Below, piece by piece: positions 25,983 through 29,012 of a DNA stretch of 32,000 bases (position 1 is the stretch's first letter; each line of letters opens with the position of its first letter). The stretch is from Pseudoalteromonas tetraodonis (GTDB lineage: Bacteria > Pseudomonadota > Gammaproteobacteria > Enterobacterales > Alteromonadaceae). The position numbers and the translations under genes are program-made. The stretch spans positions 2,850,001-2,882,000 of the forward strand of contig NZ_CP011041.1 in the NCBI RefSeq assembly GCF_002310835.1. Direction: 5' to 3'. The notes beneath the pieces were generated by a model. The model was not told the origin of the DNA, did not search any database, and was given only the letters and a program-made list of their open reading frames with translations.

Positions 25983-26364
25983 TTACTTAGTTCCCTCTAG
26001 TTCTTTTAAAATTGGATTAAGCCATCTTTGGCGGGGCAAGCTTTTTAAAAATGTAAGAAGACTTAAGCTACATTTATCATCCTGCTTGGCAAGTAACACA
26101 GCCCCATAAATGCCTGTTGGTCTTTCGGTCCAATCACCAATCAACTTAAAGTTTTCAATCAAACCATCCATGACTGACATGTATTCTTCCTTCGGAGTTG
26201 TGGTAATCGCAGTAGAGTTAACGCCACTGACCCTTACCTTTTGCTTCATTAATTCTTCTACGAGTTTTTGAGCGGCTCCAGACATTACCGAATTAACAGC
26301 CCCCATTGGAATGCTTTCTCTGCTCAGATATGCCGCTGGTGTCAAATCCATTTCAGTGAACATG
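25983..26364 (-). pseudogene. qatA: qatA 3' fragment (C-terminal 126 codons), separated from the rest by the IS insertion
   Basis: The frame continues exactly from the 5' fragment once the IS and one ATG copy are removed (..KLPP|MFTEMDLTP..). Its apparent start codon is the target-site duplication itself. Confidence 0.75.
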
Positions 26365-26390
26365 TGTAGTGGTCAACTAATTTTGGCCAC
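26365..26390. repeat. IS right inverted repeat (IRR, relative to transposase)
   Basis: tgtagtggtcaactaattttggccac. Confidence 0.85.
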
Positions 26391-27293
26391 AGTTTTAGAA
26401 TCTTGGTATCTAACCTCAGATTCATTTGGTGCTAAACTTGCATTATAATGATGTGGTCTAACGTTGTTGTAATATCCGTTGATATAATCACTCACACTAT
26501 ATTTAGCATCTTTAAAGTTTTCGTATCCAACCTTTGGCATCCACTCCGTTTTAAAGCTTCTAAAAAATCGCTCCATTGGTGCATTATCCCAACAATTTCC
26601 GCGCCTGCTCATACTTTGTGTAATTTTATAGCGCCATAAACGTTGACGATATTTTAAACTTGTATAATGACTACCCTGATCTGAATGAAACATCAGTCCT
26701 GTCGGTTTTCCTCTGCTTTCATACGCGAGTTCAAGTGCTTTTAGCGTTAAATTAGTATCTGGCGACAACGACATGGCCCAGCCAACTACTTTACGTGCAA
26801 ATAAATCAATAACAACGGCTAAATAAGCCCAGCGATTACCTACCCAAATATACGTCACATCACCGCACCACACGGTATCTGGCTCAACAACATCAAATTG
26901 TCTATAAAGCAGGTTTGGAATTTCAAGGTGTTCATTACCACCACGTTTATATGAATGTTGAGGTACTTGGCAGCTTTCAAGCTTTAATTTAACCATTAGC
27001 TTAGCAGCACGATAACGACTCAATTCAAAATCATTGTTCGTTGCTATTGCCGCGATTGTCCGCGCCCCAGCTGAGCCGCCGCTCATTGCATGTATTGCTT
27101 TAACTTCAGCCTCTAGCCTTACTTGCTCTGGCGTCGGCGTTGTATCCCGTATAGCCCAATATTTATAGCTGCTCCGATGCACATTGAATACGTTACACAG
27201 CACGCTAATTGGGTAACGCTCTCGTTGGTTTAGTTTCTCAATTAACGAGAATTGTTCAGGGAGTCGGACATCAAGAGAGCGGTAGCCTTTTTT
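26373..27293 (-). CDS. IS3-family transposase OrfB (DDE), expressed as an OrfAB fusion by -1 frameshift
   Basis: The -1 frame is open from the slippery site: [36 protein letters not shown]... The DDE triad context is [29 protein letters not shown]. Confidence 0.85.
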
Positions 27294-27553
27294 AATATAT
27301 CCTTTTCTAATTCAATGCGTTGGATTTGCTTTTTAAGTTCGCGGATTTCAATTTGTTCGGGCGTCATTGGCGAAGCAGATGGTGACTGACCATTACGCTC
27401 TTGCTTTAATTGGGTAACCCATTTACTGACGGTTGATTTACCCACCCCCATAGCCTTGACTGCATCTTCTTGTGTATAACCTTGGTCCACCACAAGCTGA
27501 GCCGTTTCTAATTTGATTGCCGCAGAGTATGTTGCGCGTTTTAATTTCGTCAT
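27242..27553 (-). CDS. IS3-family transposase OrfA (HTH + leucine zipper)
   Basis: [27 protein letters not shown]...STVSKWV. ATG 27553 is preferred to track TTG 27565. Confidence 0.85.
27287..27293 (-). promoter_or_regulatory. Programmed -1 ribosomal frameshift heptamer A_AAA_AAG
   Basis: The minus strand reads ttA AAA AAG, with AAA AAG in the orfA zero frame. The orfB frame is offset by -1. Confidence 0.8.
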
Positions 27554-27604
27554 TTTTTCACCCAAATTTGTATGCTTATTAGCATAACATTTCTTTCTTA
27601 ATGG

Positions 27605-27630
27605 GTGACCAAAATCACTGTACCACTACA
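27605..27630. repeat. IS left inverted repeat (IRL)
   Basis: The reverse complement reads tgtagtggtacagtgattttggtcac, identical to the other end at 21 of 26 positions. Confidence 0.85.
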
Positions 27631-29012
27631 ATGGGAGGTAATTTCGACCATTTATCAATAAAAGCTAGGTCGAGTTTCCACTCTTCAGGTAAATTAATTT
27701 CGTCAAATTCGACTTCTGAATTTTCAAGATCCGCTAATACTTTTGGATATCCGTTTTCCTTATCAATTAATTCATAAAGCTTGTTGGTAGCCTGAGTGCC
27801 TAAGCACCTCTCAAAAATTACCAGCTTAGTGATAGTTTTTTCATCAAGCTGCATTCCTCTGCGATGAGCGGTTTTCTTTCTCATCTTAACCTGATTGAGT
27901 AATCGCTTAACTATGCGAGGGTTGCCGTTAATGTTTGTGGATTCAGCTAATAGTGGAGCTAACTGTTCAGCAACCACAAATTTACTTCTGAGTTCGGAAT
28001 GCTTTTCAATCTCGTGATCTTGAAGTAGCTCGTCAACGGTAATTTGTGGTTGTTTCCACGACAGCCTTAATGACTCTTCAAGGGCACATCTTATCGTTTC
28101 TAATTGCGCATCGGTAACGCCGTGATCTTGAGCAGTAAGCATCATTAAATATGCCCTTATCTCCAGAACGCCGGGTCTTGGTACATGCACAGGAATTTGA
28201 ATAAGCTTGTCTAAATAATCAGTTTGATGTCGTTGAGATGCACCTTTGTGATACTCAGGCACTGCCAAGCGGATCATGTCCTCATCGGCGGCAATAACAA
28301 ATGCAGTATTGGGTAAAAATAGAAATAACCTGATCGCCTCAAGGGTCGAAATAGCATTAAATGGAGAGCAGCGATCTAAATTATCGACATAGACAATAAG
28401 TGGCTTATCAAACTCCTTTAACAGATCAGAATATGCTTTTCGGAATTCTTTAATTTCTTTAGGTGGTGAAAATGATTTATTATCTTTGATCAAACCTTTG
28501 TTTTTCTTCGCGACATCCTTAGCGCCATCGACAGCACCTTTTACATCATCAACATCCAGTTCACCATCGTCACCACCACTGAATAGTCCCATGATCTTCT
28601 GTATACCACCCATAGTTGGTATACCAGCTAATGCTGCACCACCATCCATTAGCAATCCCATCAGTCTGATCTTATCTATTCGTCCAGCAAACTCTTTTGC
28701 TTTTGCACTGAGATTTTTATCGTCTGCTGCTTTTTTAACTAAAGTAGATGCAATTGTTTCTAGTAACGCCGCTTTAGCGTCATCATACCCTTGGAAAGTC
28801 CATGCATCGAAATGTACTTGGATATATTCTTGTTCATCACTTTCCAGAGAAGCCTTAGTAAGTTCAAGAATCGTCGATTTTCCAGCGCCCCAATCACCAA
28901 AAACGCCTATACTAATAGGCATTAACTCCTTTTCTGTTATAAGATCTTTTATTGACTCAGCCGTTTCATTAAAATTTAAGAAATCAATTTTTGATTCTTT
29001 ATCAGACCACAT
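27615..29012 (-). pseudogene. qatA: qatA 5' fragment: KAP-family P-loop NTPase. The native part is 27631-29012; the last 5 codons and the stop come from the IS end.
   Basis: Walker A GVFGDWGAGKST, FDAW, an inserted hydrophobic segment LMGLLMDGGAALAGIPTMGGIQKIMGLF, and Walker B LIVYVDNLDRC. The frame ends ...KLPP+IVVVQ*, reading into the IS inverted repeat. Confidence 0.8.

Follow-up and report, generated by a model that had tools for sequence, protein, structure and literature searches.

An IS911-like insertion sequence interrupts qatA in the Qat operon of a marine mobile island

The stretch of DNA analysed here (the window) comprises 32,000 nucleotides of Pseudoalteromonas tetraodonis (contig NZ_CP011041.1, positions 2,850,001 to 2,882,000) and contains a Qat operon, the first gene of which, qatA, is interrupted by an insertion sequence (IS). 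QatABCD is an anti-phage system, reported by Gao et al. in 2020. The genes lie on the minus strand in the order qatA-qatB-qatC-qatD, with adjoining or overlapping coding ends. The 5' part of qatA (codons 1-460, encoding the KAP P-loop NTPase domain and the start of the C-terminal region, as seen from the open reading frames (ORFs) and profile matches) occupies 27633..29012, and the 3' part (codons 461-586 and the stop codon) occupies 25983..26363. The IS between them is an IS911-like element of the IS3 family, 1,266 bp long (26365..27630, minus strand), with its transposase co-oriented with qatA, and it is the only copy in the window. The other three genes are intact. qatB (25094..25981, minus strand; 295 amino acids; PADLOC QatB, E 1.6e-62) starts 1 nt past the qatA stop codon, and its product has MGTS at the N-terminus. 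qatC (23767..25122, minus strand; PADLOC QatC, E 6.8e-118; Pfam QueC) encodes a QueC-like protein, its true start probably being the ATG at 25101, and qatD (23039..23770, minus strand; 243 amino acids; PADLOC QatD, E 7.8e-86; Pfam TatD_DNase) encodes a TatD-family nuclease. The N-terminal Gly motif of QatB has been reported to be important (PMC13279940). The A-B-C-D order, the four strong PADLOC matches (that of QatA after repair of the gene) and a QatB beginning with MGTS are as in QatABCD systems elsewhere, from which this operon differs in its interrupted qatA, its location on a mobile island that carries metal-efflux genes and the presence of a conserved 81-amino acid helix-turn-helix (HTH) ORF ahead of it.

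No full-length QatA is encoded in the window as it stands, the gene being in pieces of 465 and 126 amino acids. The 465-amino acid ORF (27615..29012) runs into the IS, where it gains the residues IVVVQ before reaching a stop codon at 27615-27617. Removal of 26362..27630 yields a single minus-strand ORF of 586 amino acids (460 + 126), with the junction DKWSKLPP-MFTEMDLTP. The repaired protein is identical, at 586 of 586 positions, to a protein (P0001) present on 201 public contigs, of Pseudoalteromonas and of other origin. The match of the repaired protein to the PADLOC QatA profile (PDLC02210) is a single stretch, over positions 1-587 of 593 (E 3e-210), and its residues 15-379 match Pfam KAP_NTPase. 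The 3' part, on its own, matches positions 465-587 of the 593 in the PADLOC profile (E 2e-22) and is collinear with the corresponding region of 59 diverse homologues (less than 90% identity), the alignment of which was used to place residue 460 by conservation and gap analysis; a deposited QatA structure was looked for and none was found. These homologues are 583-601 amino acids long and gap-free at residues 455-475, across the junction; W455, P460 and L473 are invariant, and M461 is among the most variable positions. A scan of one genome per species for relatives of QatA returned 78 loci (38-100% identity), in nearly all of which the match reaches the C-terminus, the exceptions being two loci cut by contig ends and one metagenome-assembled genome with an internal stop codon. 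The two ORFs are halves of one qatA gene, as a first-pass annotation of this DNA, made from its letters alone, had proposed: the homologues run collinearly through the junction and none ends near residue 460. The break lies within a conserved, gap-free stretch rather than in a linker, and the function of the full-length protein has therefore probably been lost.

The two ends of the element can be read directly. On the plus strand, GTGAAC is followed by ATG (26362-26364) and then by TGTAGTGGTCAAC from 26365; at the other end, GTACCACTACA extends to 27630 and is followed by ATG (27631-27633) and then GGAGG. The termini of the IS are TGTAGTGG...CCACTACA, with TG...CA ends, and its length and imperfect terminal inverted repeats are those of an IS3-family element (about 1.2-1.55 kb); the repeats are complementary at the first nine of nine positions and at about 27 of 36 overall, with the left inverted repeat (IRL) at the 27630 end and the right inverted repeat (IRR) at the 26365 end. 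The window was aligned with eight uninterrupted loci in which the same QatA is encoded. In this alignment, window 32000..27631 corresponds to positions 7013..11382 of the uninterrupted locus, and window 26364..15983 to positions 11380..21761. Both flanks share exactly locus bases 11380-11382, i.e. 3 bp, and the 3-bp repeat, with its upstream copy at 27631..27633 and its downstream copy at 26362..26364 (ATG on the plus strand, CAT on the coding strand), is therefore a true target-site duplication made on integration. Comparison with the uninterrupted locus L007 gives an identity of 100% for the 10,382-bp flank and 99.95% for the 4,370-bp flank; two bases differ, one of them in qatA (window 28464), where the difference is synonymous.

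These results bear out what the first-pass annotation had said of the structure: that an IS911-like element with ends at 26365 and 27630 splits qatA (the termini, and duplications of 3 bp, are the same at independent copies), that the ATG repeats are a true duplication (the flanks overlap by exactly 3 bp at the empty site) and that the gene can be repaired exactly to encode a 586-amino acid KAP NTPase (identity to P0001 and a match to the full PADLOC profile). Its claim that the duplicated ATG provides the 3' half with a start codon has to be abandoned. Read on the coding strand, the duplication is CAT, and the ATG of the 126-amino acid ORF, at 26363..26361, only overlaps the repeat at 26362..26364: its first two bases, A and T, belong to the downstream repeat and its G is the base that follows. 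This ATG is the native codon for the poorly conserved Met461, present in intact alleles. Upstream of the IS, Met461 is turned into Ile, followed by VVVQ and the stop codon. The 126-amino acid ORF can be annotated only because codon 461 encodes methionine, and the same ORF is called in another locus, L012, the qatA of which is split by a nonsense mutation alone.

The IS has an orfA encoding 103 amino acids with an HTH (27242..27553, minus strand, IS nt 78-389; ORF list, Pfam HTH_Tnp_1) and an orfB frame encoding a DDE domain (26373..27286, minus strand; Pfam rve), in which a DD(35)E arrangement was counted in the translation. The two are in 0/-1 frames, the -1 frame continuing uninterrupted as far as nt 1258. 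At 27287..27293 (minus strand, IS nt 338-344) lies a heptamer, A AAA AAG, recognized by its motif; it would be the slippery site for a programmed -1 frameshift, which, by analogy with IS3 and IS911, probably occurs here and would allow orfB to be read as part of an OrfAB fusion. The fused OrfAB (393 amino acids) scores 358 bits against the NCBIfam model NF033516 for IS3 family transposases (cutoff 160). For a 101-nt segment comprising the heptamer region and the sequence after it, folding gave a branched RNA structure (-19.4 kcal/mol, z -2.5), and such a predicted structure would be compatible with a frameshift stimulator. OrfA is 66% identical (66/100) to the OrfA of IS911A from Escherichia coli K-12 and the IRL is identical to its counterpart at 21 of 27 positions; relatives of the element in E. 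coli, of which ISEc52 is the only one named in the annotation, are about 66% identical at the DNA level. IS911 (Shigella / E. coli K-12 insN; IS3 group) has the same TG...CA ends, 0/-1 arrangement of orfA and orfB, A AAA AAG heptamer and 3-bp duplications, and is of a similar size (1,250 bp, versus 1,266 bp here). The label "IS911-like" is thus fair, although the element differs from its E. coli relatives in being a distinct marine element of Pseudoalteromonas and related genera. TTGACC is found 6 nt from the tip of the IRR and TACAGT 8 nt from the tip of the IRL; if the ends were abutted with a 3-bp spacer, these -35 and -10 elements would stand 17 bp apart. The circle-junction promoter of IS911 has the same design, with its -35 element in the IRR and its -10 element in the IRL. 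By analogy with IS911, transposition into codon 460/461 of qatA, with duplication of 3 bp, would have proceeded by a copy-out/paste-in pathway via a circular intermediate.

Elements of the same type have been found at other sites. Two copies in Pseudoalteromonas chromids (95% and 93% identical) are also 1,266 bp long, with the termini TGTAGTGG...CCACTACA and with GGC/GGC and AAC/AAC as their flanking triplets. Copies elsewhere are 93-98% identical, with the same ends, and the 3-bp duplications at independent copies are GGC, AAC, AAC and L007 nt 10116-10118. A Logan read-based contig (L104) consists of the IS, identical from the first to the last base and exactly 1,266 bp long. One draft of the genome with the insertion has the qatA halves on two contigs, both of which stop 127 nt inside the IS, and in another draft assembly a contig stops about 1 nt inside it. 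These contig breaks, together with the collapsed 1,266-bp contig, indicate that the IS is a multicopy repeat and that the insertion is real; the source genome probably contains at least two copies. The flanks of intact alleles differ by 0-2 bases in about 15 kb, and the codon 460/461 junction is found only in a few assemblies, possibly from one strain. The perfect duplication, the intact transposase frames, the near-identity of the flanks and the rarity of the junction indicate that the insertion is recent, and the first-pass annotation is supported on this point too. A scan of metagenomes with a 28-mer from the IRR gave 75 matches at 72 distinct sites, among which no clear target consensus was apparent. 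This diversity of sites shows that the IS family is, or recently was, mobile.

The window is not the only place in which this qatA has been interrupted. Further truncated forms of the same QatA surfaced from the clusters holding the two fragments, and two of them end in translations of IS ends, one (GTQATN-CSGIVNLVTH) reading into the IRL and the other into the IRR. The contigs concerned confirm three further insertions in qatA. In the first, the IS lies at codon 39/40, in the orientation opposite to that of qatA, with duplication of L007 nt 10116-10118 (L107, positions 877-2142, 95.3% IS identity, and metagenome contig L183). In the second, it lies after codon 410, in the same orientation as qatA, with the duplication AAC (L098, from Pseudoalteromonas sp. 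SM9913, CP001796, and L099, positions 7231-8496; 97.9%). The third is at the same nucleotide as the second, in the opposite orientation (L101-L103, from 7231; 98.2% for L101), and its right junction lies outside the contigs, which end in the IS. Together with the insertion in the window (codon 460/461, same orientation as qatA, CAT on the coding strand, 100%), this brings the number of independent events to four or more, at three sites. The SM9913 allele is the closest parallel to that described here, with the same island, IS type (1,266 bp), orientation and length of duplication, and intact qatBCD genes, but it differs in its position and in its duplicated triplet (AAC rather than CAT) and therefore represents an independent event. 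The codon-410 site (L007 11228-11230, about window 27783-27785) carries the IS in both orientations, in different strains, and this reuse could reflect a local hotspot or targeting to the end of a resident IS.

In a sample anchored on an identical QatD, with about 12.7 kb inspected in each of 18 long contigs, the IS was present in qatA in two contigs and elsewhere in the inspected region in none. Some related loci have decayed further. In L097, derived from an SM9913-type allele, an IS-adjacent deletion of about 11.6 kb joins the IS (L097 8497 onward) to window 14911; it removes the 3' end of qatA, qatBCD, mntP, merC/merR and most of the recombinase module of the island, and ends inside a 496-amino acid integrase-like gene. 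In L107, qatC is split (4652-6004; 91 + 357 amino acids), and the nonsense qatA allele of L012 (2106-3866) encodes 403 amino acids. An N-terminally truncated form of QatA from P. ruthenica (P0127) may correspond to a real 5' disruption or to a contig end. Another candidate disruption, in L010 (1733-1832), was rejected as an assembly artefact, a scaffold gap of 100 N flanked by a duplicated stretch of 55 bp.

The effect of the insertion on the rest of the operon depends on transcription through the element. A consensus scan revealed no intrinsic terminator on the coding strand of the IS and no promoter-like site reading from the IRR into the 3' part of qatA. An outward hybrid promoter at the junction of the IRR with the 3' part of qatA was considered as a driver of qatBCD and rejected, as the flank offers no usable -10 at a distance of 16-18 bp from TTGACC. 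With no outward promoter, any expression of qatBCD would have to come from upstream transcription reading through the IS, which is co-oriented; the dependence on read-out from the IS that the first-pass annotation envisaged would then amount to such read-through and not to a new promoter. From the sequence, such read-through is plausible, but it is likely to be weakened by the long, poorly translated orfB stretch and the loss of translational coupling between qatA and qatB. The TGA stop codon of orfB falls within the IRR and precedes the ATG of the 3' fragment by 9 nt (window 26361-26375, minus strand); translation of the 3' fragment by termination and re-initiation, preserving the coupling to qatB, is conceivable. 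No Shine-Dalgarno sequence is visible before this ATG on direct reading.

QatA is truncated after residue 460 plus IVVVQ, with its last 126 codons orphaned downstream of the IS, and qatB, qatC and qatD would be transcribed only through the IS, their output probably being reduced by polarity and lost coupling. The Qat system was the subject of several structural studies in 2026 (PMC13279940; PMC13376578; PMC13639016; PMC13434339). In the Pseudomonas aeruginosa system, QatBC alone gives full protection against lambda-vir, the range being extended by QatA and QatD (PMC13279940); another group has termed QatA and QatD auxiliary (PMC13376578). In the E. coli NCTC9009 system, by contrast, all four qat genes were reported to be necessary (PMC13639016). 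The allele in the window is most likely a QatA-null allele with a QatBC(D) core that may be active, albeit with a narrower range; both a dead and an unaffected Qat system are possible. The view of the first-pass annotation that the system is "probably inactivated" goes further than the evidence, since QatBC alone can defend in P. aeruginosa, whereas four genes are needed in E. coli NCTC9009.

Overall, we are close to certain that the locus is best explained by a recent insertion of an IS911-like element at codon 460/461 of qatA, with a Qat system that would be weakened or narrowed by the absence of QatA rather than dead. Nothing was found that contradicts the structural part of this explanation. 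Two points weigh against its functional part, which is a prediction: the scan for terminators and promoters was a crude consensus scan, blind to Rho-dependent polarity; and the literature is divided as to the need for QatA, which is required in E. coli NCTC9009 and dispensable against some phages in P. aeruginosa. Gene callers report two proteins here, and the 465- and 126-amino acid ORFs could be taken for naturally separate genes with an IS between them, but the repaired ORF is the 586-amino acid protein of 201 contigs, all the diverse homologues align with it collinearly and without a gap at the junction, on either side of which there are invariant residues, and the shorter ORF arises in L012 by mere nonsense mutation; two separate genes have virtually no chance of being the right description. 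An assembly artefact, a repeat having been misplaced in qatA, might be suspected of any multicopy IS that breaks short-read assemblies. It is extremely improbable here, given that two independent drafts end contigs inside the IS on either side of this very site, after qatA codon 460 and before codon 461, and that the 3-bp duplication is clean, as at every other copy examined. It is also very unlikely that the two pieces of QatA cooperate as a split protein, with the 3' piece produced by re-initiation after the orfB stop codon: the 9-nt distance from stop to ATG would suit this mechanism, and the 3' piece retains its native frame and its coupling to qatB, but the ATG lacks a Shine-Dalgarno sequence, orfB is reached only through a minority frameshift, the break falls in a conserved gap-free segment and not in a linker, and the 5' piece ends in five foreign residues.

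The remaining alternatives accept the insertion and concern the reason for its recurrence in qatA, which suggests either that loss of QatA is tolerated or favoured, or that qatA contains preferred targets. The insertion may be one of several qatA knock-outs that have been tolerated or positively selected, the loss of QatA lowering a cost or retuning the Qat system with the QatBC core kept. This is a genuine possibility, although the balance is against it. It would fit with the four or more independent hits (codon 39/40; codon 410, in both orientations; codon 460/461), the nonsense allele in L012, the presence of the IS in qatA in two of the 18 QatD-anchored contigs and nowhere else in them, the integrity of qatBCD in most interrupted loci and the sufficiency of QatBC for some defence. 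However, the numbers are small, and most of the cases were found through a search with QatA fragments, which introduces ascertainment bias; only one of the 76 species-representative loci with a complete match has an internal stop codon and none has the IS; and plain decay is an equally good reading of L107, in which qatC is broken, and L097, in which the operon is gone. A related reading, in which the IS acts as a natural switch stripping the accessory NTPase QatA from the QatBC core, with qatA as a recurrent target, is rather doubtful. If it were true, QatA would be costly, or QatA-less systems would have a usefully different defence range in the sea. Preferred target sites for the IS within qatA, without selection, are unlikely to be the cause: the IS occupies the same nucleotide after codon 410 in either orientation, depending on the strain, which points in this direction, but the 72 metagenomic sites have no clear consensus, only one of them is in qatA, and the three qatA sites have no obvious common motif.

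The breaking of a known defence gene by an IS3-family element is an ordinary, common kind of event, and representative genomes overwhelmingly carry an intact qatA in the species-representative scan. Of wider interest is only that this island lineage has lost QatA repeatedly, and possibly not at random. Natural alleles lacking QatA, found beside intact alleles that are otherwise identical, provide a comparison for the contribution of QatA to the QatBC core, a question raised by the 2026 studies. For annotation, the "ATPase" ORFs of 465 and 126 amino acids should be merged as one disrupted qatA, and the same mis-split is present in public records, such as that of SM9913.

The Qat operon belongs to a metal-resistance island that moves horizontally, here in a marine gammaproteobacterium of the Pseudoalteromonas type. 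The island with this operon is found in Pseudoalteromonas, Parashewanella, Thalassotalea, Colwellia, Planctobacterium and Aestuariibacter, with 97-100% identity at the QatA protein level, and its cargo includes czc-type efflux genes, merR/merC and mntP. A four-gene module on the plus strand (window 14382-21169) encodes products of 496, 935, 701 and 154 amino acids, the first and third of which match Phage_integrase. Its layout resembles that of intA-tfp-intB-srap in strand-biased circularizing integrative elements or of ginABCD in GInts (PMC10214605; PMC5385486), and a module of this kind would probably explain the near-identity of the island across several genera. The 81-amino acid ORF, located 18 bp upstream of qatA and on the same strand (window 29031-29276, minus strand), resembles a serine-resolvase C-terminal HTH; it is conserved in all related loci and may be a remnant or a small operon regulator. 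At the other end of the window, one minus-strand frame of at least 1,395 amino acids covers positions 1-4190 and extends past the window start, with an EAL-like motif near the edge. Searches with Rfam and for tRNA genes gave no match anywhere in the window, and the ORF-poor first 4.2 kb, considered as the possible site of a hidden RNA gene, is accounted for by the long reading frame. The same IS is present on metagenomic contig L140, in a GGDEF response-regulator gene adjoining the island (window 9578), and on contig L141, in the 701-amino acid intB-like gene of the island (window 19528). The intB-like gene is also split in SM9913 (L108 9063-11146), and in L107 it contains a different IS3-family element (10301-11520).

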